NCBI GenBank assembly: GCA_039096225.1
Contig: JBBPEB010000024.1
Coordinates: 248,001 to 312,000 of the forward strand
DNA: 64,000 bases
Reading direction: 5' to 3'
From: Blastocystis sp. Blastoise
Lineage: Eukaryota; Protista; Bigyra: Opalinata
The position numbers and the translations under genes are program-made. Every line of letters begins with the position of its first letter. Positions within the stretch are counted from its first letter, which is position 1. Below the pieces are notes generated by a model. It made no database searches. It was not told the DNA's origin and saw nothing but the letters and a program-made list of their open reading frames with translations. Shown here in pieces: positions 1,062 to 56,759 of the stretch.

Positions 1062-1170
1062 TTATTTTTCTTGTTTATTTTTCTATTTTTACTTATAAAC
1101 TTGTAAAAAATCATTGAAAATTGTTTTGTTTATTGTATATACATTTAAAACACTAAAGTATAAAAAGGAT

Positions 1171-1320: not shown

Positions 1321-1387
1321 CTTTAATATATTATTTGTTTTAAATGTTGTATTATAATTATTTTCATTATTTATAAGTCAAATAATC

Positions 1388-4300: not shown

Positions 4301-4390
4301 GAAATTGTTTATAGTGAAGATCAATATCATAATACGTCATCAACAAAACGAATTTTAATAGATAATACTTTATATGCTATACCAAATTAA
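1388..4390 (+). CDS. D5-like primase-helicase (AEP-like + PriCT-2-like + SF3 helicase)
   Basis: RRLWFDLD and GIHIY (AEP motifs); TWYKLCCAAK...GLELFKNYS (PriCT-2-like); Walker A YGSTGSNGKT, Walker B YYMNE, motif C LFMTSN, arginine finger ERR. Confidence 0.85.
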   Translation: MENSQIHFVYTFGSFNHDNSKDNHSEIIIPNPLPFYKSLFTNYQNPKELLHYIDCTPCNTSTNYRRLWFDLDYHQISDDFSFLTDSFIHEFIEEICNHCIHYYNQEFISLVYTKKEVNKKTVHNEIHYSWGIHIYTNWFVNGDYLFFLYNSMILNTKLVDLCKTYNLDIKEFIDYNVIGKPRKNNGCMFLGCSKDNSPSTYKLYEEYTNKTWKKIDDEIDEHYYFKTLLNYKNEDDLISDIINPIIFSKLKQYSRYKRYYARLNNCSRTILCSIQDIKDIPMLISTDTILDTTASKEALLERYLLLIGSIEDMNYFESHNTWYKLCCAAKQICNTTRGLELFKNYSLRYGHDRSDDVIESTWNHIQVDPTHLSNNYILKILMENKLFNKDDDNDFIFMSILECIQSFNLVDSQTLVMLFQLLEFNEIVSIILDKDNFILYTFDEYNILRRCKNNYDINFFETKITTFMKSIVEKFKLSRLYSKENEQHQKIVDKIMSASVTNEYHYKEWLNRYLKTYGKSYKEYLDTYMVHKERVIYTQLGYLYPKESTEEDPRQYYIQPYHKEDMVFEDLLIDTEFNVSWNINNEQKDIIQLFEQHIARYCEFDKKYESIMLRILTTAFYVNTQKTVSYILYGSTGSNGKTITTDLISRIVGSNQCIIVNPDNLEETSIAPKIVDMSNKTMYYMNELIEEDVTGRKKTFNPFSSKVFKEIAEKKEGASARKLFSNIFTKVHFTGTLFMTSNIQPTAVNAGPIERRVCFLPSCCRYFPPGNANLYEDYVDHNLPKRKQTVEKRLKPNHYEMDYTLSDKFYQNRSIIFSYLVSNYFYSSMQLDMHELDNEYHISECKKRFFDRSTEGYDLKSFVDNHITIDPYYLNVVTIEDIFNSYKKVNNNNQFTIKKDLDKFTNALFGCLSSKDTFNSIDIVNIHRKHTSNFYKGGNAIGICGLMIDNTYNECVDTDLFCLSNCLSKKEEIVYSEDQYHNTSSTKRILIDNTLYAIPN

Positions 4391-4434
4391 ATTTATATTT
4401 ATTTTTTACTATAAAGAGTTGTTTTGTTTTAAAA

Positions 4435-6231: not shown

Positions 6232-6298
6232 TATTAAAAATTAAATTATTTATAAACAAAACAAATTTATTATTAATATTTTATAACATTTCATAGAA

Positions 6299-6721
6299 TT
6301 ATAAATGAAGAGATTGAACAATAGAATCAACACTTATATTTAATTTCATTAATTGAACAGCTAATTCTTGTATTGATTCATTTTGATTCGAATCAATTTC
6401 TTCTAATTCATTCAAGACTTCTGATATATGTTTGACTTCTTCTTCAATAATAGTTTGTTGTATTTTCATTGTCTTATAATAGACTTTCTTTGTTTGTGGA
6501 TTACAACAATTACAATGAATATCTATATTTTTAACAATTAATTGAAAGAATTCAGTTGATTTTTCAAATAAACATTTTATAGCTTTTATAATAAATTCTA
6601 ATAAAGTATTTTTCTTTTCTATTTCTTCTTCGGATAATGTGGTTGTTGTTGAACTATCTGAACTTGTTGAACTTGTACTTGATAAAGAATGTAAGGATTC
6701 AGATACAGATTTAGGCTCCAT
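6299..6721 (-). CDS. PLV hypothetical protein (Ser/Thr-rich N-terminus, HCNCC, coiled C-terminus)
   Basis: ATG ORF bounded by AT-rich spacers; downstream TGTTTTGTT motif on its strand. Confidence 0.7.
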   Translation of the reverse strand: MEPKSVSESLHSLSSTSSTSSDSSTTTTLSEEEIEKKNTLLEFIIKAIKCLFEKSTEFFQLIVKNIDIHCNCCNPQTKKVYYKTMKIQQTIIEEEVKHISEVLNELEEIDSNQNESIQELAVQLMKLNISVDSIVQSLHL

Positions 6722-6790
6722 TTTTTAATAATTTTTAAATGAATAATATAACAAAACATTTTTTAATTTAAATGAAATGAATTAAAATAT

Positions 6791-9277: not shown

Positions 9278-9372
9278 ATTTTTCTAATTTATTAAATAAT
9301 AATTTATATTAATTTATAAAAATTATTTAATTTTATTTATTTATTAATATTTTATTTAAAATAAAAAGAAAT

Positions 9373-10845
9373 ATGAGAATCTTAAGAATTAAAGATAATA
9401 TTCCTATTCAAAGTGATACTGATATTCTATCAAGTCCTTATATCTTTCAATATCATTGGACTAATGTGGATAATACTTATATCAATTTCAATCAATCCTA
9501 TTTGGATCTTACTGTCAAGGCAACTGTCACAGATAAAGCTGGACCAGTTTCTGTTTATTTAGATGAAACAGGTACTTCTGTTAGTTTCACTTATGATCAA
9601 TTATGTCAATATTTCTTGGATCAATTAGTTCAAAAAGCAAATATTTATTCTATTATTGATTCCACTGATGTTGAAATGGTTTATACATTACCTGATGGAT
9701 CTGATCGTGCTTTGAAATATGAAGAAAACTGTACACATGCTTCACGTGGTCGTAAAATGATTTTATTAAAAGATATCAGTAAGAATGATTTAGAAAAATC
9801 TATGTATGGTGAAGATTTATCTGCAGATACTTATGAATTGAATTCTATTCGTTATATACGTGCACATCCAAAACAATCTATTCATATTGCTATTCCTTTA
9901 TATCTTATTAGTGGTTTAGGTGTTGATGGAGATTCTTTAATATTAACTAAACATTTCAATATGTTATTTAGAACTAGTACTATTGAATCCTTAATTGATA
10001 ATAATATGAGTATTTATTTCAAGAATGGTGGTAAAGATCTATCAACACAATGGTTACATCTAACTGATGAAAAATGGTTTAAGACATTTGAATTGGAATC
10101 AGCTACTATGAATTTAATGACTTATAAAGATATTCAATTCCAAACGAATGAATTATATAAAACTATACCTACATGTATTCAAGTCGATTATCAAAATACA
10201 AGAATAACTAGTGATCATTTCAATATCAATAGAGCTTTACCATTTATACCTGAATATATATTATACTGGTTTACAAATGGGTATAGTTCAACAACTATTA
10301 GTAATGTAGCTAGTCCATCTGTATGGCCTAAATATCAAAGTTGTTTGATTGGTGATGTTCAAATGTTCCCTCAAACTGAATTCCCTACTCAAATGTATTA
10401 TCATAATCTTACTACTAAAGGTCATGTCTTCAATAATGAAGAAACTGCTAGTTTATCTTGTCCTAATAAAAATCTATATTGTTTATGGGCTGATAATTCA
10501 AATCCTGAAACTATTCTTAAATATGATGAATGGATTAAACATCCTATTTATATTATTCCAACTAAAGCATTAATGAATATCCAATCAGATAGTGGTATAG
10601 AAATGAATTTTGATTGTAATCTAGATGTTCATGATATTGAATATGGTCATGCTAATTCATCCACTGTTCCTGATGGATATACATGTACATATAATGAAAC
10701 TACTAAAATATGGACACCTGACACTGGTGCTTCTTATGCCGTTGCTTCTCATGCTGGTATTTATAAACATATTAATACTGAACTAAATGAGAAGCATCCT
10801 TATACATTACATATGATTGCTGTACGTAGTGTACGTGATATTTAA
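9373..10845 (+). CDS. Putative double-jelly-roll major capsid protein 1
   Basis: YINFNQSYLDL, NIYSIID, IPLYLISGLG; collinear paralogue of the next ORF; size and position next to penton and ATPase. Confidence 0.65.
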   Translation: MRILRIKDNIPIQSDTDILSSPYIFQYHWTNVDNTYINFNQSYLDLTVKATVTDKAGPVSVYLDETGTSVSFTYDQLCQYFLDQLVQKANIYSIIDSTDVEMVYTLPDGSDRALKYEENCTHASRGRKMILLKDISKNDLEKSMYGEDLSADTYELNSIRYIRAHPKQSIHIAIPLYLISGLGVDGDSLILTKHFNMLFRTSTIESLIDNNMSIYFKNGGKDLSTQWLHLTDEKWFKTFELESATMNLMTYKDIQFQTNELYKTIPTCIQVDYQNTRITSDHFNINRALPFIPEYILYWFTNGYSSTTISNVASPSVWPKYQSCLIGDVQMFPQTEFPTQMYYHNLTTKGHVFNNEETASLSCPNKNLYCLWADNSNPETILKYDEWIKHPIYIIPTKALMNIQSDSGIEMNFDCNLDVHDIEYGHANSSTVPDGYTCTYNETTKIWTPDTGASYAVASHAGIYKHINTELNEKHPYTLHMIAVRSVRDI

Positions 10846-11015
10846 ATTTAATATTTCTTACTTACTATTCTTAACGTTAACTTGTTTAATTAATTCTATT
10901 CTATTCTATATTCCAATCATTTGTTTTGTTATGAATTTCAAATAATTTTATAATTATAAAATATCATTATTATTTTATTTTTTATTTAAAAAATACATAA
11001 ACAATAATTATTAAC

Positions 11016-12239
11016 ATGGAAGGATTCCCAAGACAATTCTTACCTTCAAAGGCAAATCAAACTATTAAACCTGTACAAATTCCTATTCTGGTTTCTACTA
11101 GTCAGGATTTATTAAATCAACCTTATCCATTTGAATTCTTATATAATTCAGTTGATAGTCCTTTTATTGATTTCAGCAATTCATTCTTAGAACTGAATTT
11201 CAATATTACAACAAATGCAGCAACATCTAGTTCTGTTGTACAACATTCTAATATCTATAGTATTATTGATAAGATTACTACAGATCTTACGTTTGTATCT
11301 CCTACGGGTCAAGATATTCTTATTAATTATTCTGAATCTTCTATTGAATCCAGTAAAGCAAGAAAATTTGTTACTATTAAAGAATTAAGTAAAGATGAAA
11401 TTGATAAATCTATGTATAGTATGACAGAATGCTTATATAATACAACCTTAAGTAGTATTTCTGGAATGCAAAGTTCTACTAAAGCTCAAGTTATTATTCC
11501 TTTATCTCTTATTACTGGTCTTGGTACATTTGATTGTGCTATTAAAGTAAAATCTTTGAAGATGCAATTCGTTACAAATTATTTAAAGAATCTATTTACA
11601 GGTACGACTAAAATCACTGCATTAACTTTTGATCGTGTTTATATTCATCTTCAACAAATCTATGATATTAATTTTGGTAATGATCCACGTGCTTTGATTA
11701 AATGTATTCCTAATAATTGTCAAATATCTGCATTTACTACACCTGTTTATTCAGAAACATTCACAACAGCAGGTAAACCAACTCCACAACAATTCTTATC
11801 CAATAGAAGTGTTGTTTTCGTACCTGATTACTGTATGTTATATTTTACAACTCAAGAGAAGAGTATGATTCCTATTAAGACTGAATTATTGAAGATGTGT
11901 CAATTCCAAATTGGTGGTCAAAATATCTTACCAAAGACGGATTTCCCTACTACGTATAAAACAACGAATCCATCACAAATTATTCCTAATGCTATGCTTT
12001 ATAATACTTGGAGATGTAATAGTCATCCTCAATCTCCTTTAAACGGTGAGAAATGGTATGAACAACCTATTTATATATTCCCTATTTCAAGTGTTGTTGA
12101 TGTCAATACTCGTAGTGGTTGTGAAGTTAATATCTCCTTATTAACTGAATATAATGGTGCAAATATTACTAGTGGTACTTATACTTTATATGCTCATTTT
12201 ATATTTGTTAAATTTGTTAGAGATGGTGCAACCAATTAA
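11016..12239 (+). CDS. Putative double-jelly-roll major capsid protein 2
   Basis: FIDFSNSFLEL, NIYSIID, KSMY, IPLSLITGLG, PKTDFPT, WYEQPIYIFP shared with MCP1. Confidence 0.65.
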   Translation: MEGFPRQFLPSKANQTIKPVQIPILVSTSQDLLNQPYPFEFLYNSVDSPFIDFSNSFLELNFNITTNAATSSSVVQHSNIYSIIDKITTDLTFVSPTGQDILINYSESSIESSKARKFVTIKELSKDEIDKSMYSMTECLYNTTLSSISGMQSSTKAQVIIPLSLITGLGTFDCAIKVKSLKMQFVTNYLKNLFTGTTKITALTFDRVYIHLQQIYDINFGNDPRALIKCIPNNCQISAFTTPVYSETFTTAGKPTPQQFLSNRSVVFVPDYCMLYFTTQEKSMIPIKTELLKMCQFQIGGQNILPKTDFPTTYKTTNPSQIIPNAMLYNTWRCNSHPQSPLNGEKWYEQPIYIFPISSVVDVNTRSGCEVNISLLTEYNGANITSGTYTLYAHFIFVKFVRDGATN

Positions 12240-12329
12240 TTTAATTATCTAATATTTTCTTTTATCAATTTATACAATTTAATAAATATTGTTTTGTTTA
12301 TCAATACATAATTAATTTATTTAATAAAA

Positions 12330-12995
12330 ATGACATCAATATCTCATCTAAGTAAAATTACAAGTCAAATCTGTCATGAACAATTCAATTATACTTTGGA
12401 TTTAGTAGGTAAAAATATAACTCATATCAATACATTAGTGAATACAAGTGATATCATTAATATTCCATCTTTCAGAATAACTGAAAATAATGCAACAGCA
12501 CATACATTTCCAGCTGGTAACTATTCATTGGAAGAATTCTTTGAGAAATTAATTGAACTTGGTAAAGATATGACAATATCTGTATCTGGACAAACGAGTG
12601 CATTCTATTATGATAAAGAAACAAAAACATTTGGTACGTATAGTGGATTCAGAAAAAGTCTTAGTAATAAAGAATTCTTTTATTATTTAGGATTAGATGA
12701 TGAATACTTTAATACACCAATTACTTACAGTGATGAATATATATCTAATAATATTTCATGGTATAAGATCTATATGTTACGTGTGTATTGTGATATTATT
12801 AATAAAGATAATGATTTGATTTCTATTCCTTTATATGCTAAACAAGGATTTGATAATACATTTGCTTTAAGTGATTTATCTATTCCATGTATTGATGGTA
12901 AATATACAGATATCCAATGGGAAGTATATGATCAATTAAATAATCCAATTGATTTATCAAATACAAATCTTTATATATACTTTACTGCATCTTAA
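12330..12995 (+). CDS. Minor capsid protein (penton, single jelly-roll)
   Basis: FPAGNYS...YLGLD...LRVYCDII...IQWEVYDQLNNPIDL, a pattern typical of Polinton/PLV pentons. Confidence 0.75.
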   Translation: MTSISHLSKITSQICHEQFNYTLDLVGKNITHINTLVNTSDIINIPSFRITENNATAHTFPAGNYSLEEFFEKLIELGKDMTISVSGQTSAFYYDKETKTFGTYSGFRKSLSNKEFFYYLGLDDEYFNTPITYSDEYISNNISWYKIYMLRVYCDIINKDNDLISIPLYAKQGFDNTFALSDLSIPCIDGKYTDIQWEVYDQLNNPIDLSNTNLYIYFTAS

Positions 12996-13063
12996 TAAAA
13001 TCATATATTTATCATTAACTTATCATTAATTATTTTTTGTTTTGTTGATTAAAATCATATAAA

Positions 13064-14101
13064 ATGGTGAATAAAATAAATCCATTAAAAGAAACACGTA
13101 AAGGATGCGGAGTCTTAGAATTTAAATATGGAAAATCACATCATAAAACATATGAATCAAAATTCATATTGATTATTGCAAGAACATTCTCAGGAAAATC
13201 TTTCTTAACTGTGAATCTCTTATGTTCTATGGATCTTAAAAATAAATATAAACAAGTCACAGTAATTTGTCCTGATGCATCCAATAAGAATGAATGTTAT
13301 ACATCCTTTCAAGATATTTGTGAACATGCTGGAATTGATTATAAATGGTATGATTCTGTAGATGATAAATTTAAAAAGATTAAAACTGTTGATGAATTAG
13401 TCAATACATATAAATTACCAGAACATAATTTTATTGTATTGGATGATATCTATCCATTATCTAGACAAACCAAACAACTGATTGTATCTATATTATCTAA
13501 AGGTCGTCATTATAAACAGAATGCTATTATATGTCTTCAAAGTCATACAGATGTTACCAATCAATCTATATTAAGTCAAGTATCTCATTTCTTTATTAAT
13601 AGTCAAATCTTAAAACGTGATCCTGGATTCTTACCAGATAAATTAAAGATTATGCCATCAAATCTAAATGAAATTCTTACAGATGAAGAATTAATGAATG
13701 ATCCACATCAATTCTTTATGTTAAAACAAGGTAGTGATGATTTAACAATATGGACTAATCCTGATTGTGGTAGTAAACAGAATGTATATAAGATGGTAAA
13801 GAAAAGGAAATGGACAGAAGAAGATAGTGAAAAAGAGAAACGAGAAGAACAAGGTGAAGTATCAGGTAGTGGTATTAAACGTCCTAATGAACATATATCT
13901 ACATATGAAAAGAAAATGAAGAAGTTTTTACCTGTTGAAGAAGAAGTCTCATTGAAAGGTATTGAACGAGATGAAAAAGATAAACCTAAAGAATCCATCT
14001 TACAAATCATACAAGATCAAATCATACAAGATAGTCAACGACGCATTTTCAATCCTTATTTAAATAAAAAACATTATTCTGGTTATCCTTCTTTTCATTA
14101 A
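13064..14101 (+). CDS. A32/FtsK-HerA-type genome packaging ATPase
   Basis: Walker A ARTFSGKS, Walker B FIVLDD, KGRHY...ICLQ motif. Confidence 0.9.
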   Translation: MVNKINPLKETRKGCGVLEFKYGKSHHKTYESKFILIIARTFSGKSFLTVNLLCSMDLKNKYKQVTVICPDASNKNECYTSFQDICEHAGIDYKWYDSVDDKFKKIKTVDELVNTYKLPEHNFIVLDDIYPLSRQTKQLIVSILSKGRHYKQNAIICLQSHTDVTNQSILSQVSHFFINSQILKRDPGFLPDKLKIMPSNLNEILTDEELMNDPHQFFMLKQGSDDLTIWTNPDCGSKQNVYKMVKKRKWTEEDSEKEKREEQGEVSGSGIKRPNEHISTYEKKMKKFLPVEEEVSLKGIERDEKDKPKESILQIIQDQIIQDSQRRIFNPYLNKKHYSGYPSFH

Positions 14102-14154
14102 TTTTTTTATATTTTAATTTGTCATATAAACCATAATTATTTTATTGTTTTGTT

Positions 14155-15192
14155 ATGAGTTCAATTACAAAAAGATATTTAAAACAAAATTGTGATCCAC
14201 GATTATTTGGAGGATCACCACCAAAATCAAATAGACGTGATCTTTATCATAAACGTTATGTAAGATATGGAGGAACTGGTTTTGAAGAAATTGTTAGACA
14301 ACAAGCTAAAGATGCTGATTGGGCTGATTTTAAAAATGGTGTCTATACTGCATTACCTATTTTAGGTACATTAGGAGCATTTGCTGGATATAATTATTAT
14401 CAGAAACGTAAAGAACAAAAACGTCAAGAAAAAGCAAAAGAAGAAAAGAAAAGACAATTTGAAGAACATATTGAAGATGCTAATAGAGATGATGAATTAT
14501 ATAATGATGATGCTACTTATCAACCAAAGAGAATAACAAGAAAAATGATGGCTGATGATGATAAAGATTATAATAATGCAAATCTTGAAGATGAAAATTA
14601 TGATGATATATTTGGTCAAGGTATACATAGAAGGCATCAAAAACATCGTAAAGAACATGGGAGTCACCGAGAAAAAGAAAAGAAAACAAGTAAATTCGTA
14701 ACTCCTCAAATAAAAATTATTGCTAAGAAGGCTATTCGTTCTAGTAATGTAAAGTCTAATAAGAAGAAATTACAAGATATTAAAGAACGATTACCTAAAA
14801 ATGATGAGCATGTGTCTGTACGTGATATTGTTAATGTCGTTATCGATAAAGAATATCCTATGGATCCAAAACAAAAGCATTCTATTATTGCGAATACTGC
14901 TATTAAAACTATTAAAACGATTGTTCCTATTGTAGTGAATGCATTAAAATACTATTATCCTTCTCTTGGTATCCCTATTGATTTCGCTTATAATATGATT
15001 ACTACTGATGATGATAAGAAACGTAAAGAAACTGCTGATAACTACTTTAAAAATCCTAGTGGAAGTGGTGTTACAAAAGAGAATGCTGAACGTTGTGGTG
15101 GTGCTCTTGTCAACTCTACATCCTTTGATACTACTACTAATTTAATTATTAATCTTGTTCAATTCTTCTTAAAAAAATTTCATTTAAATTAA
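14155..15192 (+). CDS. PLV hypothetical basic protein with a short hydrophobic segment; candidate core/virion protein
   Basis: LPILGTLGAFAG segment; GG and GxG motifs; Lys/Arg-rich. Confidence 0.7.
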   Translation: MSSITKRYLKQNCDPRLFGGSPPKSNRRDLYHKRYVRYGGTGFEEIVRQQAKDADWADFKNGVYTALPILGTLGAFAGYNYYQKRKEQKRQEKAKEEKKRQFEEHIEDANRDDELYNDDATYQPKRITRKMMADDDKDYNNANLEDENYDDIFGQGIHRRHQKHRKEHGSHREKEKKTSKFVTPQIKIIAKKAIRSSNVKSNKKKLQDIKERLPKNDEHVSVRDIVNVVIDKEYPMDPKQKHSIIANTAIKTIKTIVPIVVNALKYYYPSLGIPIDFAYNMITTDDDKKRKETADNYFKNPSGSGVTKENAERCGGALVNSTSFDTTTNLIINLVQFFLKKFHLN

Positions 15193-15268
15193 TTATTTTA
15201 ACTTTTATTATTTCATAATTAATTATTTGTTTTGTTATATAATTATTTTTAAATTAATACAATAAATA

Positions 15269-16066
15269 ATGCAAAGTAATTTAGGAGATAGTGTAACTCT
15301 CTATGATATTTTATCAAGAAATCAGAAAAAACAATCTTGGGATCCATGGTTACCCAATTCATATATTTGTCAAGATGAACAACCTGTACAACCATTAGCA
15401 CATGATCCTAATGCACAAGGATCTATGTATAGTTCAATGGCAGTTCAAGCATTAAGAAATCATGGTCAATCACCTGAAGATATGTTTATAGCTACTATGA
15501 ATTCAGCTAAAGCTAATGGTGATACAAATAGATATACATCCATGTTATCTCAATGGCAAACGAATTATGGTATTCCTACTACAAGTAAGATATGGTATGA
15601 TGCTAGTAATCCTAATAACTATCAATATGAAAAACTTATTCACACTGTAAGAAATCCTAATGAAGACTATACAGTGAAACCACAACCAGAATCCATGAAT
15701 TCTAATTTCACTGAAGAACAACCCAAACCAGAACCTGAAAAGAAACCTGAACACGAAAAGAAACCAGCTAAAGAACCTGAAACTAAACCTGAAACTGAAA
15801 AGAAACCATCTAAAGAAGATGATAATACTCCAAAGAAATTTGAATTCGATATGAATTTACAACAAGATACCGACGAAAAAACATATTATAACGCCACTTA
15901 TGGAAAGTATAAATTCAAATGGTATACTGATGGATCTATTGAATGCACCAATAGTGAAGATTTCGGAAATAATAATATATTCTACAAAAATAAAACATTA
16001 TTTGTTGAAACTGATGATAAATCAATGGATATTGACGATTATTTAAAAAATACTCATAATAATTAA
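15269..16066 (+). CDS. PLV hypothetical protein with KPE repeats
   Basis: 265-aa ATG ORF in the co-oriented cluster. Confidence 0.75.
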   Translation: MQSNLGDSVTLYDILSRNQKKQSWDPWLPNSYICQDEQPVQPLAHDPNAQGSMYSSMAVQALRNHGQSPEDMFIATMNSAKANGDTNRYTSMLSQWQTNYGIPTTSKIWYDASNPNNYQYEKLIHTVRNPNEDYTVKPQPESMNSNFTEEQPKPEPEKKPEHEKKPAKEPETKPETEKKPSKEDDNTPKKFEFDMNLQQDTDEKTYYNATYGKYKFKWYTDGSIECTNSEDFGNNNIFYKNKTLFVETDDKSMDIDDYLKNTHNN

Positions 16067-16154
16067 TGATACTATTAATATACTAACTATATAATATAAA
16101 TAATTTCTTTTTTTTGTTTTGTTTTAAAATTCATAATTATTTTATTAAACTAAA

Positions 16155-17639
16155 ATGATACAAAGTGCTCGTTTAAATGTTTCAAATAAAGGATTAGTAG
16201 GCGTAAATCATCGTGCTACTGGTCATGAATATCGAAATTATATTGTTCCAGGATCTATTCCTGATGGAGAAGAACGTTATCCAATTAATTATTCTATTGC
16301 TCCAAATTCATTATATGCTGTTAAGAAAATTGAAAGTAATATGGTCAATAGAGCAACATCCAATCCATTTTTCTCCTATTTATCAGAAACCAGACAAGAT
16401 ATTATACAAAGTTCCTTAGAAGAATCAGAAGAAAGTGAACCAATAGATGAAGGATCTGGGTTATTACCTGATGGTAGAATTCCAAGGAATTTCACAAGAA
16501 AACTCATTTATGCTCATGATTATGTCTTACCTTATATGAAACAAAATCATATGTCTGATTATGCTAAATATTCTAGATTATTAAATCCTCGTACAATTGA
16601 TAGTGCAATTGATTTTACTAGAAGAGATCGTGATGGTTATTTATATTCTAGAGGTGGTAATTTATTTTCTAATATTTATCACACTGTAAGTGATGTATAC
16701 AATGTGTCTGATAAATTAACTGGAGGTATTAATAATATCACTCATGGAATAAGTAATGCTGTTGATTATGGTGCAAATAAATTTAAAGATCTCAAGAATT
16801 GGTGGAGAGATATTAATGTTGATCCAAAAGAAGGATTCAATGATATTAAAGGAAAACTTGTAAGTGATAGAAATAATTTATATGATAATTGGAAATTAAC
16901 TGATGATAATGAAGCTAAGAAAAAGAATAAATTATTAGCTGATAACTATTTTAGATTTGCTCATATGTCAGGTAATGATACTAAAGAACAAAGACTTAAC
17001 AAAACTAAATCTTTAGAAGATCAAGCAAAAACATTTCATAAAAATTATATTCCCTATGCAGAAAACCCTACATTTGTTAATAAAGTTGTTAATACTGTAA
17101 CAAATGTAGGAACACCAATTGTTAATGGTGTTAAAAAAGTTGCAAACTCTATTGTTAGTGGTACAAAGAACGTATTTAATAGTTTTTCTGATTGGTGGTA
17201 TGGTAAAAATCCAGATGAAGAAATACCACAAACAGAAAATCCAATAGAAACAAATAATAATGTTATACCAACTTCTTCATCTACTCCTGATACTCTAACA
17301 CAAGAAAATATTCATAATATTACTATAGAAGATTCAAATCCTCCAAATTTAATTCCTCTTATGAATGATCCTACTGTTCCTTTACCTGACACTGTTCCAA
17401 TGTCTCAAGCAATAACGAATAAATTCACTCCAAATATTACACCTGTAGCCCCTATTTCTAATCCAGTAGAAAATGTCACTCTTGAAAATAAAAGAAATAA
17501 AAAAGAAGATGATGAATTTCAATCATTTGATGAAGATGATGGTGAGGTATTTTATGATCTAGAAGAAGGTAATGGATTACGTAGAAAAAGACGTATTTCA
17601 AAAAATAAAAAATTAAGAAATAAACGTAGAAAACATTAG
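16155..17639 (+). CDS. PLV hypothetical protein; amphipathic repeats and very basic C-terminal tail
   Basis: 494-aa ORF; EGSGLL, SRGGNLF, EGNGLRRKRR... Confidence 0.8.
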   Translation: MIQSARLNVSNKGLVGVNHRATGHEYRNYIVPGSIPDGEERYPINYSIAPNSLYAVKKIESNMVNRATSNPFFSYLSETRQDIIQSSLEESEESEPIDEGSGLLPDGRIPRNFTRKLIYAHDYVLPYMKQNHMSDYAKYSRLLNPRTIDSAIDFTRRDRDGYLYSRGGNLFSNIYHTVSDVYNVSDKLTGGINNITHGISNAVDYGANKFKDLKNWWRDINVDPKEGFNDIKGKLVSDRNNLYDNWKLTDDNEAKKKNKLLADNYFRFAHMSGNDTKEQRLNKTKSLEDQAKTFHKNYIPYAENPTFVNKVVNTVTNVGTPIVNGVKKVANSIVSGTKNVFNSFSDWWYGKNPDEEIPQTENPIETNNNVIPTSSSTPDTLTQENIHNITIEDSNPPNLIPLMNDPTVPLPDTVPMSQAITNKFTPNITPVAPISNPVENVTLENKRNKKEDDEFQSFDEDDGEVFYDLEEGNGLRRKRRISKNKKLRNKRRKH

Positions 17640-17711
17640 TTAATTTTAATTTGTTTTATTTATTATTATTTTTAAACTAAACAATTTGTTTTGTTATTTA
17701 TAAAAATTAAT

Positions 17712-17882
17712 TTAAAAATCAATAAAATTCTTGATATAATCTTCATATTCATCATCTTCACTTACAGTATGAAAACTGTCCATATCAGAATCACTATCAC
17801 TTAATTCATCAACTTCAAAATTTCCATAAGGTTTCCAAGTACCTTCTTTATAATCTGGAGCAAATTGCTTTGGAGAATCCAT
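17712..17882 (-). CDS. Small acidic PLV protein (56 aa, MDSPKQF...)
   Basis: ATG at 17882, directly downstream of the HSE array at the TIR inner edge. Confidence 0.5.
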   Translation of the reverse strand: MDSPKQFAPDYKEGTWKPYGNFEVDELSDSDSDMDSFHTVSEDDEYEDYIKNFIDF

Positions 17883-17928
17883 AATAAATAGTATAAAAAT
17901 AGAAAAAAACGCATAATACAATTTGTTA

Positions 17929-18828
17929 TTCTAGAAGTTTCGAGAATGTTCTAGAATGTTCTAGAAAATTGATATACATCCCGCCACCTAAAATCACTGG
18001 AACACAATTAGTTTCCCCAGTTTCCCCAATATAATTGTGTTTTTGTGTTCCAAAATCCCTCATTTTTACATTTTTAAGCAATTTGATTGGACAATTCACG
18101 ATGACGCATCCTATTTCCATAACGGTTACCCTTGTTTCCAAAAGTCTCTCGTTATAATCGTGGTGGTGGGTACATCTTTTTACAAGACCACACCACCACC
18201 AGCTTTTCTTTCACCCACTATAAATACATACCTTGATCACTTTACTCTTTTTTATAAATTTTTTTATGATTATCATGACTTTTTATATTATTTATTGATC
18301 ACTATACATACATTTTTATTTTTATATATTCCCGTGATTATTCTTATTATTTCTTTTTAGATAGAACCATCCATTTCATCTTTTCTCTATATAAAGGGAG
18401 GGTCGGGGTGTGTGTTTATTTAGCACATTCTGTGCTTCTTTTCGTATTTCTTTCTGTATTCCCGTGATTATTTTACTCACTTTACCAACGATGGAGTCAT
18501 TTTCCATGAATATTCCCTGTAAAGGGGAGGGTGTGAGTGTGTATTTTATTTCTTTTATGATTACTATGAGTTTCTCCTTGATCACTTTACGTTTCACGTT
18601 GGAATCGGAACACAAATAAATTAAAAATAAATAAACATGGGAAAAAATAAATACACACACACACTACCCTACACTCCCATGGTTATTTTACTTCAGAAAT
18701 GTTATTAATTCTTCCGTCGAGAACAAAAAGGGGGGATGTCTTCCCCGCTTATGGCTGCGCGCGTCGCGCAGACTCTATGCGGGGTTTGCATACCCCCTTC
18801 TGCAGTTCGAAGAACGGAAGAATTAATA
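17929..18828. repeat. PLV terminal repeat (~900 bp): HSE array at the inner end (17929-17966), GC-rich hairpin at the outer end (18703-18828)
   Basis: Near-identical to 51113-52012. Copy 2 is inverted, so the match implies inverted termini in the full element. Confidence 0.85.
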
Positions 18829-44460: not shown

Positions 44461-44518
44461 CTTATAAATAATGAAAATAAATATGGTATAAAATTCAAAA
44501 CAAATAATATATTAAAGA

Positions 44519-44667
44519 TTCTAGAAGTCAGTTTTAGAAGCTTCTAGAACCTTCTAGAACCTTCTAGAACATTCAGGAACATTCTATAATAGTAAATATT
44601 ACTTTATATTTTTAAATGTTCTAGAACCTTCGAGAACCTTCGAGAACCTTCTAGAACCTTCTAGAAC
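44519..44667. promoter_or_regulatory. HSE-like arrays (copy of 1171-1320)
   Basis: TTCnnGAA arrays; visible differences from copy 1 within the arrays fall in n positions. Confidence 0.75.
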
Positions 44668-44776
44668 ATCCTTTTTATACTTTAGTGTTTTAAATGTATA
44701 TACAATAAACAAAACAATTTTCAATGATTTTTTACAAGTTTATAAGTAAAAATAGAAAAATAAACAAGAAAAATAA

Positions 44777-45400
44777 TTAAATTTCAATTGGTTCTTGACT
44801 ATTAATATATGTACATGAATGAGGCCATCCATTTTTATCATATAAAATACCATCCCAGAAATACATTTGTTTTGAAGGATCTCTTTTAATCTTGTTAATA
44901 CTCTTAGCATGAACAACTTCATAAGTATAAACTTTACCTTTTTCATCATAAAGAAATCCATCTTCCATATGGAATTTCATAATATCAAAATCATCATCTT
45001 TAGAATTCGAATGTTCTTTAGAATCTTCAGAACATAAAATAGTAGTTCTATCACTTTCTAAAAGATCTTCAGTATTGATAATATCTTGAATATCTTGTTC
45101 TTCATTAAGTTGTTGAGTATAAATATCAGCAGCGAATTCTTCATAATCTTCAAGACCTTTAATAACCGCGTTTATACGTTTTAAAGCTGATCTATAGTTT
45201 TCGACTTCGAAAGAAGCAAGACGTTCTTTAGATTTTGCAATACCCAATAGATTCTTTTCTCTATTCAATTGAGACTGATGTAAATCAATATCACGAAGAA
45301 CATTCTTATGAACTTCAACAGCCTTCTTAGAATTCTTAAGAAGTTCCATACGAACAGTTTGAAGACATTTACGGGAATCAGCAGAAAGATTAAATTGCAT
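44777..45400 (-). CDS. PLV hypothetical coiled-coil protein (copy of 438-1061)
   Basis: Near-identical translation. Confidence 0.8.
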   Translation of the reverse strand: MQFNLSADSRKCLQTVRMELLKNSKKAVEVHKNVLRDIDLHQSQLNREKNLLGIAKSKERLASFEVENYRSALKRINAVIKGLEDYEEFAADIYTQQLNEEQDIQDIINTEDLLESDRTTILCSEDSKEHSNSKDDDFDIMKFHMEDGFLYDEKGKVYTYEVVHAKSINKIKRDPSKQMYFWDGILYDKNGWPHSCTYINSQEPIEI

Positions 45401-45798
45401 TATAATCGCGAATATCGTTACAGAGAGAAAATTTGTATTTATCAAAATGAAATAAATAATACATTTAAATGGAATATTAAATATTCTAGGAGACAGTGTA
45501 GAATCTCTATGGAATGTTCTAGAAGGTTCATTTGATTGGCTAATTTTATCGACTTAGCATTTTTTATTTGTGTTTCAATGACGAGTATAGTTGGCATCTG
45601 TAATTTGATTGGATAAAAAAATTAGTAAAACACAATTAGACGATGACGACGATGTGTCATACGAAATAAGTTATTTTATTGGCTTATTTTCCAGCTGGAA
45701 GCAATAGGCTTTTGTTAGCAACTGAAATGAAGAACTGTACACTAAAAATAGTATATTTAATATATTGTATAAAAATACTTTTGAAGGTTTAAATAATC

Positions 45799-46326
45799 AT
45801 GGAAATTCCTGATAGTCTTTCTGCCAGTTTATCCCCTTTCGGTCAAGCCATGATATCCCCCTTGTTGAATCCATTTGAAAATAGTGTTTCTGCAAATCCT
45901 ATGGCTTTACCCAATGATAATGATTTCTGTTTTAATTCGCGTGACGAAATCATGTTTGAAGATCCACCTCAAGAAATTCATCCAATCAATGATGTTTACG
46001 TATCTAAAAATCCAGATAGATATCATTCGGTTAACAATCAACCAATACAATTTCAAGATCAAGTAAATACAAATCCTGATAAGAAAGCATTATTATTTAC
46101 AAATGAGGAGTTAACAAATATATCCAGTCAATTCGAATCTTTATTTCAAACTATTGAAACAGCTGATAATATATTAAATGGTATTTATTGTACTGTTGAT
46201 CATTTAAAAACAAAGATTGAAAGTCAGAAACAAGATTTGAAACAGATTCATGATGATTCTAAAGAAATTGTTTCATTATTATCCGAATATTCTATTCCTT
46301 CTATGTCTGAAATATTTGATCATTAA
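45799..46326 (+). CDS. PLV hypothetical protein, C-terminal coiled coil
   Basis: 175-aa ATG ORF; start conserved in copy 1. Confidence 0.8.
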   Translation: MEIPDSLSASLSPFGQAMISPLLNPFENSVSANPMALPNDNDFCFNSRDEIMFEDPPQEIHPINDVYVSKNPDRYHSVNNQPIQFQDQVNTNPDKKALLFTNEELTNISSQFESLFQTIETADNILNGIYCTVDHLKTKIESQKQDLKQIHDDSKEIVSLLSEYSIPSMSEIFDH

Positions 46327-46413
46327 TTATTTTTATTTAATTAATTATTTTGTTTTGTTTATTTTTTAAATTAATTACACAAAGTTTAAATGGAGAATAG
46401 AATAGTTTCAAAT

Positions 46414-46521
46414 AGAATTCTTGAATGGTCTAATGGATCTATTAAAGAAATATGTAACCACAGTATCATGGTTCGATTCCGTTAAAATGTTTCCATTAGA
46501 TTATTCAAGTGTTCTTTTTTT
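46414..46521 (+). ncRNA. Candidate RNA polymerase III small RNA (~105 nt; VA/vault-RNA-like architecture)
   Basis: A-box TGGTCTAATGG (46426-46436), B-box GGTTCGATTCC (46470-46480), T7 terminator (46515-46521); the 5' and 3' 24 nt pair at 23/24 positions. Confidence 0.7.
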
Positions 46522-46567
46522 CTAGAACCTTCTAGAACCTTCTAGAACCTTCTCGAACATTCTGGAA
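46520..46567. promoter_or_regulatory. HSE-like array (10 units) upstream of the SSB-like gene
   Basis: TTCtaGAAccTTCtaGAAccTTCtaGAAccTTCtcGAAcaTTCtgGAA. Confidence 0.75.
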
Positions 46568-46644
46568 AATTGATTCATTTGAAAAGAATATCGTAATATA
46601 TTAGTATTAAAATACTTATATTTTTACTAAATACTTAACTAAAA

Positions 46645-47238
46645 ATGTCTACAACTGAATTTAAAAAACCTACTATTCTTGATACTTCTAACTTTAATTT
46701 ACAATGGGATGACACCAAAGAAAATGCTGTTCTTTTAAATAATAATCATCGTGTATGTATTTCTACTGATGCTACACCATGTTTATTTGGTTATATTGTT
46801 ACACGTGATAAATGGACTTTATTAACAATTGAAGATGATAATCAAGTATTCTTAACTGCTTATAAAGAACTTTATCGTAAATTATGTGAATTATGTCCTG
46901 ATGGTGATATTGTTAATTTTGTACGTATGGATAATGGTAAGTATAAGATTACAATTAAAGTACCTATTAATGCATCGAAGAATGTTACTATTGATATTAC
47001 TGATAAAAGAGATAAGAAGATTAATATCGGTAAAGATCCTAAGTTAACTTACGAAGAAATACGTGAAAAGTATATTCCACCAAATACGTTATGTAAAGTA
47101 TTATTTACAATACATGGTATTCATCGTTATAATAACAAGTATTATATTGGTTTATATGCTCGTTCTATTAAAGTCATCGATAAATCTACGAAGAATACTA
47201 ATAGTAATGATACTATTATTGATTTAACTAATTTATAA
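46645..47238 (+). CDS. Putative OB-fold single-stranded DNA-binding protein
   Basis: C-terminal IPPNTLCKVLFTIHGIHRYNNKYYIGLYARSIKV resembles the viral (T7 gp2.5/NCLDV-like) SSB pattern; function inferred. Confidence 0.55.
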   Translation: MSTTEFKKPTILDTSNFNLQWDDTKENAVLLNNNHRVCISTDATPCLFGYIVTRDKWTLLTIEDDNQVFLTAYKELYRKLCELCPDGDIVNFVRMDNGKYKITIKVPINASKNVTIDITDKRDKKINIGKDPKLTYEEIREKYIPPNTLCKVLFTIHGIHRYNNKYYIGLYARSIKVIDKSTKNTNSNDTIIDLTNL

Positions 47239-47313
47239 ATTTTTAATGTTAAATTTATTTTTTATTAATATATTTGTTTTGTTTATAAATAATTTTATAA
47301 TTGAAATAAAAAA

Positions 47314-48942
47314 ATGCAAAGTTGTATATTAGGAATGCCAAGTCCTGGTACTTTTGGTATGAATTTAATTTCAACTGGAAAAGAATATAGGCGATATAAT
47401 ACACAACCATTACATAAAATGGATCAATATAATCCAATATTTCATGAAATAGGTCCAAATTCATCTATGCCTGTGTCTACTTTAGAAAGTAAAGAAATAC
47501 ATGATGGTAAAGAAGATGATTATGTAGATCGCTCTAAAACATTTGGTAAAGATGCTGTTCCACAAGGAAATGGTGCTTTAATTCGTGCTAGAGCAGCAGG
47601 TAAAGGTGTAATGAAAGCAGCTGGTCCAGAAGAAGATAAAATAGATGGTGAAGATCGTCAATATAAAGTATTAAATCCATGTAAACCAAGACGTAAATCT
47701 GGTAGAGGAATTATTCCAAATAAATCAGAAATCAATAAATTAGAGAATAATCAAGGTTCTGGTATTGGTGATGCAATTAAAAATAAAGTAAAAAATATGT
47801 ATCAACGAAATGTATTAGATATAAGAGATGCTATTGTAGATAAAAAAGCTAATAGAAAAGCTCGTGATGCATTAGCTATTTTAGCTCAATATGTTGGTGA
47901 CGGTCATCATGATCTTGATGATGAATTCAAAAGATTCTATGAACATAAAATAAAACGTGGTGGAAAAATTCCTATATCTGTTGCTTCAGCAATTATGAAT
48001 GCAATTAAAAATAAGAAAATGATTAAGAATCCAAAATTAAGAAGAATGTTAAGACCTTCAATTATACCAAAATATATAGATTTAGATTCAGCTCAAAGTG
48101 GTGATGGTATATTAAGAGTAAAAAGAGGTGGTGGATTCTGGAGCGGATTAATGGATTATGCACCAGCTCTATTAGGTGTAGTTGATAAAGGTATGGATTC
48201 TTTTGCTAAAGGTAGAAAAGCTTATTATGATACACATTTGGCACAACAATCAAGTGAATTAAATGATATGGAATTTGAAATGGAAAAATTAAAACGTCAA
48301 CAAGCATTAAATGAAATGAAAAAGCAAATAGGTTCAGGAAATACAATAAATAAAATGTTTGAAGGATATTATGATGTAGCTGATGAAATGCAAGATGCTC
48401 TTGATGAAGATGATAGACTACATCCACAACCCGTTGTTCAACCTCCACCACCTCCACAACAACAAGTTGATCGACCTCCTCAATCTCAACCTCCTCAACC
48501 TTATAAACCCATGTCTCGTGATGAACAAAGTTATTATTATAAGATTTATGGTTTCCCTCAAAATGATAAAGAAAAAGTCGATAGAAAATGGAAAGAAGAT
48601 GAAAGGGATAAACGAATAGCTGCAAGAAGAGCTAAACGTAGAGGTTATGGTGGTCGAGTTAAATTAAGTAAAGAAGAATTCTTAGAACGAATGAGAAGAG
48701 GAAAAGAAGCTAAAAAGAAAAGAGGTGGTGATTTGAATCCATTAGTATCATTTTATACAGATTTTATAATACCTGCAGGAGTGGCACGAAAAAAACGTAA
48801 AATACAAGAGGCTGATTTAAAACAATTACAAATTATAAAACAGAAAAGAGATAATAATGAAACATTAAATGCAGGTGACGAATTGTTTTGGAAAAAAAAG
48901 AAATATATGTTATCAAAAAACTCAGGGGAGGGGATCTGGTAA
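47314..48942 (+). CDS. Basic, GG/GxG-motif-rich protein; candidate core protein precursor
   Basis: QGNGAL, SGRGII, QGSGIG, KRGGK, SGDGIL, KRGGGFW, KRGGDL, SGEGIW; adjacent to the protease. Confidence 0.75.
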   Translation: MQSCILGMPSPGTFGMNLISTGKEYRRYNTQPLHKMDQYNPIFHEIGPNSSMPVSTLESKEIHDGKEDDYVDRSKTFGKDAVPQGNGALIRARAAGKGVMKAAGPEEDKIDGEDRQYKVLNPCKPRRKSGRGIIPNKSEINKLENNQGSGIGDAIKNKVKNMYQRNVLDIRDAIVDKKANRKARDALAILAQYVGDGHHDLDDEFKRFYEHKIKRGGKIPISVASAIMNAIKNKKMIKNPKLRRMLRPSIIPKYIDLDSAQSGDGILRVKRGGGFWSGLMDYAPALLGVVDKGMDSFAKGRKAYYDTHLAQQSSELNDMEFEMEKLKRQQALNEMKKQIGSGNTINKMFEGYYDVADEMQDALDEDDRLHPQPVVQPPPPPQQQVDRPPQSQPPQPYKPMSRDEQSYYYKIYGFPQNDKEKVDRKWKEDERDKRIAARRAKRRGYGGRVKLSKEEFLERMRRGKEAKKKRGGDLNPLVSFYTDFIIPAGVARKKRKIQEADLKQLQIIKQKRDNNETLNAGDELFWKKKKYMLSKNSGEGIW

Positions 48943-49508
48943 AGAGTAAAGATGAGAAATTAATTCAAAATTCAATGAATTGCGATAATCCTATTATATC
49001 TGATAAAACTCGTCATGTTACTCCTAGATCCCCTGATAATTTCAAACAAACTCTATCTCAATATTGTAATATACCCAATTCTTTAATATCTCAATTATAT
49101 AATTATGCTTATTTAAATAAACCTACCTCTTCTGTTGCTTGTGATCGTGCTGAAAATGTTATGAAACAATTAAATAAAACGAATTCTCAATCTTATAATT
49201 ATTATAATAGTTATGATGATTTTGAACAAAATATAGATCAAGATCAAACTAAATTTAATATGATCTTTCATGAAAGTCCTAGTGATCCTTATAATGGTCA
49301 TTTTGAAGCTGTTATTTATAATGGTAATAAAAACATAGAACACTATTCATCATTAGGAAATGAACCTACTTTTTCAAAATCATTTATTCAAAATCATAAT
49401 ATTCAATATAATCCTATTCAACACCAAAAAACTACAAGTAATGCAAATGGTTGCTTTTATTATTCTTTACTTTATTTACTTTCTAATGGAAATCTTATGC
49501 CTTGTTAA
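48888..49508 (+). CDS. Adenain-like cysteine maturation protease (divergent); start uncertain (ATG 48975 or frameshift fusion)
   Basis: NGHFEAV...EHYSSLG...QHQKTTSNANGCFYYSLLYL matches the H...(D/E)SxG...Q...C layout, but the acidic residue is atypical. Confidence 0.65.
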   Translation: MEKKEIYVIKKLRGGDLVKSKDEKLIQNSMNCDNPIISDKTRHVTPRSPDNFKQTLSQYCNIPNSLISQLYNYAYLNKPTSSVACDRAENVMKQLNKTNSQSYNYYNSYDDFEQNIDQDQTKFNMIFHESPSDPYNGHFEAVIYNGNKNIEHYSSLGNEPTFSKSFIQNHNIQYNPIQHQKTTSNANGCFYYSLLYLLSNGNLMPC

Positions 49509-49512
49509 AACC

Positions 49513-49535
49513 TTCTAGAATATTCTAGAACATTC
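49513..49535. promoter_or_regulatory. HSE-like array (5 units) upstream of the 124-aa ORF
   Basis: TTCtaGAAtaTTCtaGAAcaTTC. Confidence 0.65.
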
Positions 49536-49630
49536 ATTTTGAACTGGCTCTATTTGTAGAATCTTTAATTTATTATATTAGTGTTTTATATAATTAATTT
49601 GTTTTGTTTAATCATTGGTTAATTTAAATA

Positions 49631-50005
49631 ATGAACAAGAAATATCTTAGTTATTCTTATTTTTGTCGTGTGATGAAGAATCTAAAAGAAGAAGGAATTA
49701 AATCCAAAAAGAATGAAATAGCGAATCTATTAGAACAATTTTTAAATAATAATAACAACAAGAATCTTAGTGATTTGCAATTGAGTTACTGTAGAAACAT
49801 GTTACTTTATATAGATGATCCTGTGATTCATCAACGTCTTGAAATGCTATTGGATAAACAATATATGAAGAATGAGAATCAATATCAAGAGGATAAGAAT
49901 CTTATTCAACCAAATAATATGTTTATGCCAACTATGAAAAGTAATCAACAACAAAATCAATATCAAAATAATAATAATAATCTATCTTTCTTACCTTTTA
50001 ATTAA
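49631..50005 (+). CDS. PLV hypothetical protein (124 aa)
   Basis: ATG ORF behind an HSE array. Confidence 0.65.
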   Translation: MNKKYLSYSYFCRVMKNLKEEGIKSKKNEIANLLEQFLNNNNNKNLSDLQLSYCRNMLLYIDDPVIHQRLEMLLDKQYMKNENQYQEDKNLIQPNNMFMPTMKSNQQQNQYQNNNNNLSFLPFN

Positions 50006-50078
50006 TTTTTATATCCTTTTATTACTAGTTGTTTAGTTATATTCAAAATTAAAACAAAACAAACATAAAAACATAAAA

Positions 50079-51014
50079 TTATTCAATTAATTTTTTAAAT
50101 AAATTATTATTTTCTAAAGATACATAAGAATTAATATGTGTATAATCATTATGACATAAAGCAGAAGCAGAATTTTCTATATCTTGAAATGTATTGGTTG
50201 TAGTTGTAGCATATAATTTTCTTAATGCATTAATGGTCAATTTTGGATGGATTTGTTTTAAATGCTTATTCACAAACCAATCAAATGCTTTAGTAGTAAA
50301 TCCAGTTCGTACAGAAGATTCAAATATAAATTTACGATTTGGATTTCTTTTTAAGAGTAATTCTAGATCTTCAATCAATTCTTTTGGTGCATCTAATTGA
50401 ATTGTAGAGTATTTACCAGCAGTTTTATAATCATTTAATAGAATAGAACCAGTATGTTTCTCTTTATCATAAACAATATAATTCTTATGAATAGCTGGAT
50501 CAATAGTATCTTCTGGTGATAGAATGAATAATTGAGCATAATCAGCACGAGCAGGAGGAAGATAGGAGTAAAAATCTAATATTAATCGTAATGGATTATA
50601 ATTTTCTAATTTATCGTGATATTCATGTAAATATGGAGTCGTAATACCATCTTTAATAAGATCTTGAATTAAAGTACGTTTCTTATTATCCAGATATTTT
50701 TCATACATTGAATTGATAATCACATAAAATTCACACCATTTATTCAAAATACCTTCTTTATTTAATGAAGAAACATTACGTATAATAAATAAAATCAATT
50801 CACATAACGATTTCATTGGACTAATTTTGATTTTACGTTCATTTACCATATAATCCATGAATGAATAAGGATTCTTTAAGAATTCTGAGAACTTTTTAAA
50901 TGGTAATGGGAAAATATATAAATTGAAATAATTAGTTAAACGTTTTTTCCAAATATCAGAATAATTTGAATTCTGTATAACCAAAAGATACTTGTCATAA
51001 TTTGTATTTTTCAT
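50079..51014 (-). CDS. Tyrosine recombinase-family protein 2
   Basis: LPPARADY(R)...NDYKT(K)...FIF...NALRKLYAT(R)...LCHNDYTHINSY(H,Y); first ATG at 51014. Confidence 0.8.
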   Translation of the reverse strand: MKNTNYDKYLLVIQNSNYSDIWKKRLTNYFNLYIFPLPFKKFSEFLKNPYSFMDYMVNERKIKISPMKSLCELILFIIRNVSSLNKEGILNKWCEFYVIINSMYEKYLDNKKRTLIQDLIKDGITTPYLHEYHDKLENYNPLRLILDFYSYLPPARADYAQLFILSPEDTIDPAIHKNYIVYDKEKHTGSILLNDYKTAGKYSTIQLDAPKELIEDLELLLKRNPNRKFIFESSVRTGFTTKAFDWFVNKHLKQIHPKLTINALRKLYATTTTNTFQDIENSASALCHNDYTHINSYVSLENNNLFKKLIE

Positions 51015-51102
51015 TGATTTTCTCAAGTAGAATCTCTAAAACTTCTATTTTCAAAAGAATAATACATAAGAAAATCAAAATAAAATATCTAAGATTCTCA
51101 TG

Positions 51103-52012
51103 TTCTAGAATGTTCTAGAAGTTTCGAGAATGTTCTAGAATATTCTAGAAAATTGATATACATCCCGCCACCTAAAACCACTGGAACACAATTAGTTTCC
51201 CCAGTTTCCCTATTATAATTGTGTTTTTGTGTTCCAAAATCCCTCATTTTTACATTTTTAAGCAATTTGATTGGACAATTCACGATGACGCATCCTATTT
51301 CCATAACGGTCACCCTTGTTTCCAAAAGTCTCTCGTTATAATCGTGGTGGTGGGTACATCTTTTTACAAGACCACACCACCACCAGCTTTTCTTTCACCC
51401 ACTATAAATACATACCTTGATCACTTTACTCTTTTTTATATAAATTTTTTATGATTATCATGACTTTTTATATTATTTATTGATCACTATACATACATTT
51501 TTATTTTTATATATTCCCGTGATTATTTTTATTATTTCTTTTTAGATAGAACCATCCATTTCATCTTTTCTCTATATAAAGGGAGGGTCGGGGTGTGTGT
51601 TTATTTAGCACATTCTGTGCTTCTTTTCGTATTTCTTTCTGTATTCCCGTGATTATTTTACTCACTTTACCAACGATGGAGTCATTTCCTATGAATATTC
51701 CCTGTAAAGGGGAGGGTGTGAGTGTGTATTTTATTTCTTTTATGATTACTATGAGTTTCTCCTTGATCACTTTACGTTTCACGTTGGAATCGGAACACAA
51801 ATAAATTAAAAATAAATAAACATGGGAAAAAATAAATACACACACACACTACCCTACACTCCCATGGTTATTTTACTTCAGAAATGTTATTAATTCTTCC
51901 GTCGAGAACAAAAAGGGGGATGACTTCCCCGCTTATGGCTGCGCGCGTTGCGCAGACTCTATGCGGGGTTTGCATACCCCCTTCTGCAGTTCGAAGAACG
52001 GAAGAATTATTA
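51103..52012. repeat. PLV terminal repeat, copy 2, with a 10-unit HSE array (51103-51150) and terminal hairpin (51888-52012)
   Basis: Near-identical to 17929-18828. Confidence 0.85.

Positions 52013-56463: not shown

Positions 56464-56516
<53 letters not shown>

Positions 56517-56714: not shown

Positions 56715-56759
<45 letters not shown>

Follow-up and report, generated by a model that had tools for sequence, protein, structure and literature searches.

A candidate Pol III gene for a hairpin RNA in a Polinton-like provirus of Blastocystis

Introduction

Does a short hairpin between two genes of a Polinton-like virus (PLV) integrated in Blastocystis encode an RNA read by host Pol III, and what might such an RNA do? 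A sequence-only reading of the 64-kb stretch of DNA analysed here (the window) had proposed a Pol III small RNA at this locus, built like adenovirus VA RNA, an antagonist of PKR and Dicer, and possibly serving as an RNA-silencing decoy or small-RNA precursor. In the openly accessible literature searched, we found no description of a Pol III RNA encoded by Polintons, PLVs or virophages. The accessible text of PMC8502044 describes a different, polymerase-bearing Blastocystis element and contains neither 'VA RNA' nor 'pol III'.

A candidate Pol III gene with its A box in a terminal stem

The candidate gene lies on the plus strand at 46414..46521, as do all the features of the locus given below, and its predicted transcript is ~103-108 nt long. 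The start, which may fall anywhere in 46410-46414, was placed from the end of the stem and the distance to the A box. This A box (TGGTCTAATGG, 46426..46436) is found at +13 from the likely start and fits the consensus TRGYNNARNNG as used in PMC12498455; in the part of that study available, the A boxes of one class of bovine leukaemia virus (BLV) genes peak at +11 to +12. The B box (GGTTCGATTCC, 46470..46480) follows 33 nt past the A box, a gap within the 30-60 nt range of type-2 Pol III genes. Further 3′, a T7 run (46515..46521) supplies the run of at least four Ts expected of a type-2 gene; as a putative terminator it would leave a 3′ U overhang of 2-4 nt. A TTTAAA at 46385..46390, ~24-29 nt 5′ of the likely start, may be a TATA-like element, although such a motif carries little weight in AT-rich DNA.

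The ends of the predicted transcript pair with each other. The 5′ arm of the terminal stem (46414..46437, 24 bp) contains the A box, and with the 3′ arm (46492..46515) it forms 20 Watson-Crick pairs, three G-U pairs and one U-U mismatch. All three wobbles are G-U on the box-bearing strand, two of them arising where U-U of the 3′ arm faces G-G of the A box, and the stem reaches from the likely start to the terminator. An apical 5-bp hairpin, AACCA/UGGUU (46456-46460 with 46469-46473) around an 8-nt loop, overlaps the B box at 46456..46473; its pair probabilities in the predicted fold are 0.93-0.99. The boxes, the T7 stop, the pairing at 23 of 24 positions with three G-U pairs and the inner hairpin had all been noticed by eye from the sequence, and each was recovered at an unchanged position.

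The strict B box at 46470-46480 is the only one in the window, both strands counted. When 28 kb of element DNA was shuffled 400 times in 1-kb blocks, with dinucleotides preserved, a strict B box arose in 3/400 cases, a loose A..B layout in 12/400 and an A..B..T5 layout in 2/400. The stem score of 19 is the highest across both copies of the element, and none of 40 shuffles got to 19 (top score 18). The element's own palindromic repeat arrays score up to 18, and each arm is similar over its outer 12 bp to the palindromic TTCTAGAA repeat unit of the element; a TTCTTGAATG repeat unit is present at 1279-1288.

The folding check proposed by the sequence-only reading gave a predicted single unbranched hairpin with z -7.3 on the plus strand. 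The minus strand reaches z -6.2, so the z-score alone does not choose between strands. On their own, the inner 54 nt show no excess of structure over shuffles (z +0.47). The RNA folding energy prefers the plus strand (-34.2 vs -29.1 kcal/mol), whereas the DNA folding energy shows no strand preference (-15.1 vs -14.9). The G-U pairs had been taken to favour a stem at the RNA level; this bias is weak, as we estimate p ~1/8 for 3/3 transitions appearing as G-U under neutral decay. Judged by its sequence, the locus is a real, non-random and well-formed candidate gene, whose function we infer.

ARAGORN detected no tRNA in the 64-kb window. Aligned as a tRNA on its boxes, the candidate forms no acceptor, D or anticodon stem and only 4/5 pairs of the T stem, which discounts a tRNA or tRNA pseudogene and bears out the earlier remark that there is no cloverleaf. 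Rfam returned no tRNA match and no match at gathering level for the candidate, and the VA family was absent from the matches (5 and 8) even at E<=10; the best Rfam matches, generic plant miRNA hairpins at <=26 bits, were rejected. Neither a tRNA nor a known RNA family thus emerged from this type of check, for which Infernal and tRNAscan-SE had been suggested. A SINE or MITE was also rejected from the ends of the unit: the longest flanking direct repeat is 4 nt, there is no A-rich tail and the 3′ end is the T7 run. No second copy of either arm, and no target site of either arm with a penalty <6, was found elsewhere in the 64-kb window.

The carrier provirus

The carrier is an integrated Polinton-like provirus with a double jelly-roll capsid, and the PLV setting proposed earlier is upheld by the capsid fold, the ATPase and the primase-helicase. 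Two copies are present. Copy A occupies 1..18828; over its first part (1-1377) it is 98% identical to 44461-45837 read on the opposite strand. Copy B (44461..52012), which carries the candidate RNA, is inverted relative to copy A and comprises the left arm only, the core genes being missing. Moreover, 17929-18828 matches 51113-52012 at 98%, and 51113..52012 is likely a terminal inverted repeat, a 900-bp end common to the copies; neither copy has both ends in the window. By extrapolation, copy A's own RNA locus would lie ~580-680 nt before the first base of the window.

The major capsid protein is encoded at 11016..12239 (plus strand); its structure model (pLDDT 68) has the Sputnik virophage capsid as best Foldseek match (E=5.7e-12). 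A paralog at 9373..10845 is 30% identical to it, and the same pair of tandem paralogous capsid genes is seen in a second PLV family of the same host (P0002/P0006). Also on the plus strand are a P-loop ATPase, likely for packaging (13064..14101, PHROG 2666, E=1.2e-10), and a primase-helicase (1388..4390, PHROG 1156, E=2.2e-09). A likely tyrosine recombinase, or integrase, at 50079..51014 (minus strand) is assigned by a weak match to Pfam Phage_integrase only (E=0.084). No DNA polymerase was identified among the ORFs scanned. A 598-aa ORF (4435-6231) has a recombinase-like H...H...Y stretch by eye, with no Pfam or PHROG match, and may be a second tyrosine-recombinase-like gene.

Both immediate neighbours of the candidate are plus-strand ORFs. 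Upstream is a 175-aa ORF (45799..46326) with 16 near-identical proteins in the protein collection. The downstream 197-aa ORF (46645..47238) is SSB-like, a look-alike of DUF5871/DUF2738 of large DNA viruses, at a score of 0.95 that is below the recognition threshold and makes it a lead only. DUF2738 is presumably ssDNA-binding. The single-sequence structure model of the 197-aa protein was of low confidence (pLDDT 37), and searching the PDB by sequence brought no informative match.

Blastocystis sp. Blastoise is the annotated source of near-identical proteins. The provirus exists in ~19 copies, the recombinase and 407-aa capsid clusters each totalling 19 contig placements. The 175-aa gene is the neighbouring accession in 11/11 named 542-aa genes. 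Copies of the 175-aa protein are 95-99% identical and those of the recombinase (10 proteins) 98-99.7%, which makes this a young family, and one with a fixed order of genes.

Arrays resembling heat-shock elements (alternating nGAAn/nTTCn) are, within the window, confined to the two provirus copies. They occur at 1172-1303, 17929-17968, 44537-44668, 46520-46569, 49513-49535 and 51103-51152, with short ones at 309-328 and 45512-45531. The array at 46520..46569, made of 10-bp TTCTAGAAnn units, abuts the terminator of the candidate and lies 5′ of the SSB-like 197-aa gene. These arrays precede the primase-helicase, SSB-like, 124-aa and recombinase genes and not the capsid genes, a distribution that suggests an early gene programme switched by stress.

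Searches for related loci

A search pattern that combined the two boxes with the complement of the A box had no match in viral contigs. In genome contigs all four matches were ordinary tRNA-Val genes and were rejected. Metagenomes yielded 13 stretches: seven belong to one retrotransposon family, three are tRNA-Val, one is a perfect DNA palindrome (L007), and two (L008, L012) look tRNA- or SINE-like by eye. No homolog of the candidate RNA was found among the motif matches.

The retrotransposon family (L001, L003, L004, L005, L006, L009 and L011) is Gypsy-like, and its hairpin unit is located away from pol. The seven copies lie inside elements with reverse transcriptase, RNase H and integrase domains and are 65-86% identical over aligned pieces. 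As in the candidate, the A box lies within the 5′ arm, its GG takes part in two G-U pairs, the B box is internal and a T-run directly follows the stem; unlike the candidate, the unit sits in another class of element and its terminal stem is 19 bp. Global identity between the two is 52-55%, mostly from the searched motifs, and the unit is therefore treated as convergent. Its boxes are fixed by the search pattern. However, the outer stem and T5, which lie outside the pattern, are 100% identical in 7/7 copies, against 76% for the middle and 63% for the flanks. No compensatory changes were seen in the stem among the seven copies, two copies folded whole gave z -1.1 and -2.2, and there was no Rfam match. 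The unit represents one independent, analogous family and not a homolog; it suggests that selection can act on the same design in a mobile element, but does not extend that to the candidate.

No related locus turned up when viral contigs, metagenome contigs, genome contigs and GenBank phages were scanned with proteins, yet contigs of up to 27 kb do encode related capsid and recombinase proteins. Such proteins, in clusters P0003, P0004 and P0044 (27-31 members), are found on Logan/ENA contigs up to 23-27 kb, and may come from free or integrated relatives of the provirus. Contigs of uncertain type were found for three sequencing runs of one study, none on record as RNA; those of X1 matched 45850-47250 at 46000-46232 and 46634-47209 (~99%), within the flanking genes. 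None lies over or bridges the candidate, and they have no bearing on a short non-polyadenylated RNA.

Comparison with known Pol III RNAs

In the parts of PMC7589676 available, adenovirus VA RNA has its A box within a terminal stem that is cut by Dicer. The candidate shares with VA RNA I/II the internal A and B boxes, the oligo-T terminator, an A box in a Dicer-length terminal stem, a B box toward the apical part and a carrier virus with a double jelly-roll capsid (PMC7589676). It differs in being ~105 nt rather than 160, in forming an unbranched hairpin with a weak apical stem (the inner 54 nt that fold no better than shuffles), in having no central domain, no GGGU or ACCC and no Rfam match, and in being a single gene in a protist host. 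Membership of the VA family was rejected on length, central domain, GGGU/ACCC and Rfam. The description 'built like VA RNA' therefore holds for the type-2 layout and for an A box held in a terminal stem that runs to the terminator, but not for length, branching, central domain, GGGU/ACCC or Rfam. If expressed, the candidate would resemble VA RNA in its promoter and terminal stem. The proposed silencing role is plausible from the RNase III and Piwi domains of the host clade; PKR is a vertebrate kinase, and its antagonism is unlikely in a protist.

Two other groups of viral Pol III RNAs come close in the available text of PMC12498455. The BLV pre-miRNAs share the type-2 promoter and an A box in a simple hairpin; they are Drosha-independent Dicer substrates made from an integrated provirus, features that we count as shared with the candidate by prediction (PMC12498455). 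However, the BLV unit has its B box beyond the terminator, five hairpins and multiple degenerate A boxes (PMC12498455), whereas both boxes of the candidate are inside the transcript. The TMERs of murine gammaherpesvirus 68 are likewise viral Pol III RNAs with a tRNA-type promoter and a source of small RNAs, which the candidate putatively is too, but they consist of a tRNA-like 5′ part followed by separate hairpins (PMC12498455), whereas the candidate lacks a cloverleaf and holds its promoter in the stem. A BLV-type unit was rejected on the ground that the candidate's B box precedes the 3′ arm and terminator. Taken together, the candidate is neither a tRNA, nor a BLV-type unit, nor a recognisable SINE. 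The nc886, snaR and vault RNAs are ~100-nt Pol III RNAs with paired ends, encoded by vertebrate host genes; the candidate is like them in size and paired ends but has no Rfam match to them.

Host machinery and proposed role

The host is probably a tortoise-clade Blastocystis. The accessible part of supplementary file 7 of PMC10690189 lists, for three tortoise strains, 2/1/1 RNase III, 3/1/0 PAZ, 2/1/0 Piwi, 0/0/0 RdRP and 2/3/2 heat-shock factor domains, together with Pol III and some TFIIIC subunits. The same part has no entry for these strains for a B-block-binding TFIIIC domain or an Exportin-5 C-terminal domain, and no row named for Dicer (PMC10690189). A term search of the main text of two Blastocystis genome papers returned no mention of Dicer or Argonaute. 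The gaps in the domain table, including the one strain without Piwi, may reflect divergence or real loss. From the domain counts, a small silencing pathway probably exists in the clade, and a silencing role of the candidate RNA is plausible because RNase III is present in 3/3 and Piwi in 2/3 of its genomes.

The A box, B box and T-run within an integrated PLV point to a gene likely read by host Pol III, and from its sequence we consider the candidate probably genuine, a Pol III RNA gene belonging to the virus. By analogy, it may also act through the silencing pathway, feeding or blocking Dicer/Argonaute, a reading in which our confidence is a little under even. TFIIIC would bind the A and B boxes, and Pol III would start at ~46414 and stop in the T7 run, giving a ~105-nt RNA. 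Its first and last 24 nt would pair, leaving a 5′ triphosphate and an end that is almost blunt apart from a short 3′ U overhang, the shape that Dicer cuts in VA RNA (PMC7589676) and BLV pre-miRNAs (PMC12498455), in the portions of those papers available. An RNase III/PAZ enzyme of the host might then bind the stem end and could release a 21-24-bp duplex, so that the hairpin would be a decoy for Dicer/Argonaute, or the source of one small-RNA duplex. We favour a decoy over a guide or self-targeting RNA since, apart from the locus itself, the two element copies contain no near-complementary target of either arm; between them, these copies appear to cover the whole element. With only 1-2 RNase III domains, 0-2 Piwi domains and no RdRP domain in the host clade, plentiful hairpin transcribed from ~19 proviral copies could overload the pathway and so protect viral transcripts when the provirus reactivates. 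That PLVs of single-celled hosts generally make a Pol III hairpin RNA jamming host silencing, used together with a heat-shock-driven early programme, is a wider idea that we rate as rather unlikely.

If that wider idea is true, VA-type counter-defence in the relatives of adenoviruses would be ancient, or would have been invented more than once, well before PKR and interferon existed, and mobile elements would make recurrent use of a module in which the A box is locked into a terminal stem that stops at the terminator. An RNA that blocks Dicer/Argonaute would give VA RNA a protist precedent, suggesting silencing suppression rather than PKR blocking as the older job. The protist is in culture and carries ~19 near-identical proviral copies, and a ~105-nt RNA made there lends itself to direct tests.

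The layout evidence (the stem, the A..B..T5 shuffles and the fold z-score) would also fit a real Pol III hairpin RNA that acts outside silencing, for instance by sequestering an eIF2-alpha kinase or a protein of the dsRNA-binding or La type, or by serving as a structural or packaged RNA. VA RNA itself has several targets besides Dicer (PMC7589676, in the part available), and the three tortoise strains have La-type (7/5/4) and dsRNA-binding (1/1/0) domains (PMC10690189 supplementary file 7). However, the accessible part of that domain table has no rows for OAS, RIG-I or Gcn2 by name, and the sole well-formed domain of the candidate is the Dicer-length terminal stem, the inner part being unstructured; we regard this alternative as unlikely, though it keeps some weight. 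A neutral relic in one copy is distinctly unlikely: here a captured host tRNA fragment or SINE head would have undergone a chance inverted duplication by template switch, perhaps seeded by TTCTAGAA repeats, or the locus would be a tiny MITE. The tRNA-like A-to-B spacing, the surviving T-stem pairs and the resemblance of the arms to the TTCTAGAA unit are what such a history would leave. It sits poorly with boxes that are perfect while the D, anticodon and acceptor stems are gone, with the absence of an A-rich tail, of a target-site duplication >4 nt and of a second copy of either arm in 64 kb, and with a stem that ends exactly at the terminator.

The remaining alternatives act at the level of DNA. 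tRNA genes have barrier activity, and a TFIIIC-bound, tRNA-gene-like boundary might keep upstream transcription or host heterochromatin away from the heat-shock-type promoter that serves the SSB-like gene, the hairpin merely stabilising a by-product. The perfect B box would be the TFIIIC anchor, and the terminator abuts the array at 46520-46569 just 5′ of the 197-aa gene, but a barrier needs no 24-bp stem matching start and terminator, and we think this quite improbable. That the hairpin serves as an origin or primase signal on displaced single strands is highly improbable: the element has a primase-helicase and the SSB-like gene adjoins the hairpin, but G-T pairs weaken DNA stems, the DNA energies are modest and equal on both strands, and the boxes and T7 are left unexplained. 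The silencing reading has its own counter-evidence in the folding of the minus strand, in arms that resemble a repeat unit whose arrays score 18, in an analogue that belongs to a different family and lacks compensatory changes, and in the B-block TFIIIC, Exportin-5 C-terminal and Dicer-named entries unlisted in the available part of the domain table, with one strain lacking Piwi (PMC10690189).

Neighbouring DNA

Shortly 3′ of the stop codons of both genes flanking the candidate are TGTTTTGTT/TTTGTTTTGTTT tracts (46348-46359 and 47271-47284), which we take to resemble the downstream polyadenylation element of Blastocystis. That element shows no enrichment in tortoise strains in the part of PMC10690189 available. 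Adjoining the end of copy A, 18829-25600 holds a 1730-aa reverse-transcriptase ORF (19347-24539) with 29-bp tandem repeats on either side, in arrays inverted relative to each other; such inverted tandem-repeat ends are unusual for a retroelement. An intact Helitron Rep/PIF1 helicase ORF lies at 28729-33222. Lastly, IS630/Tc1-like remnants span 52390-61581, with DDE_3 at 53538-53873 and 160-bp inverted repeats ~9 kb apart.
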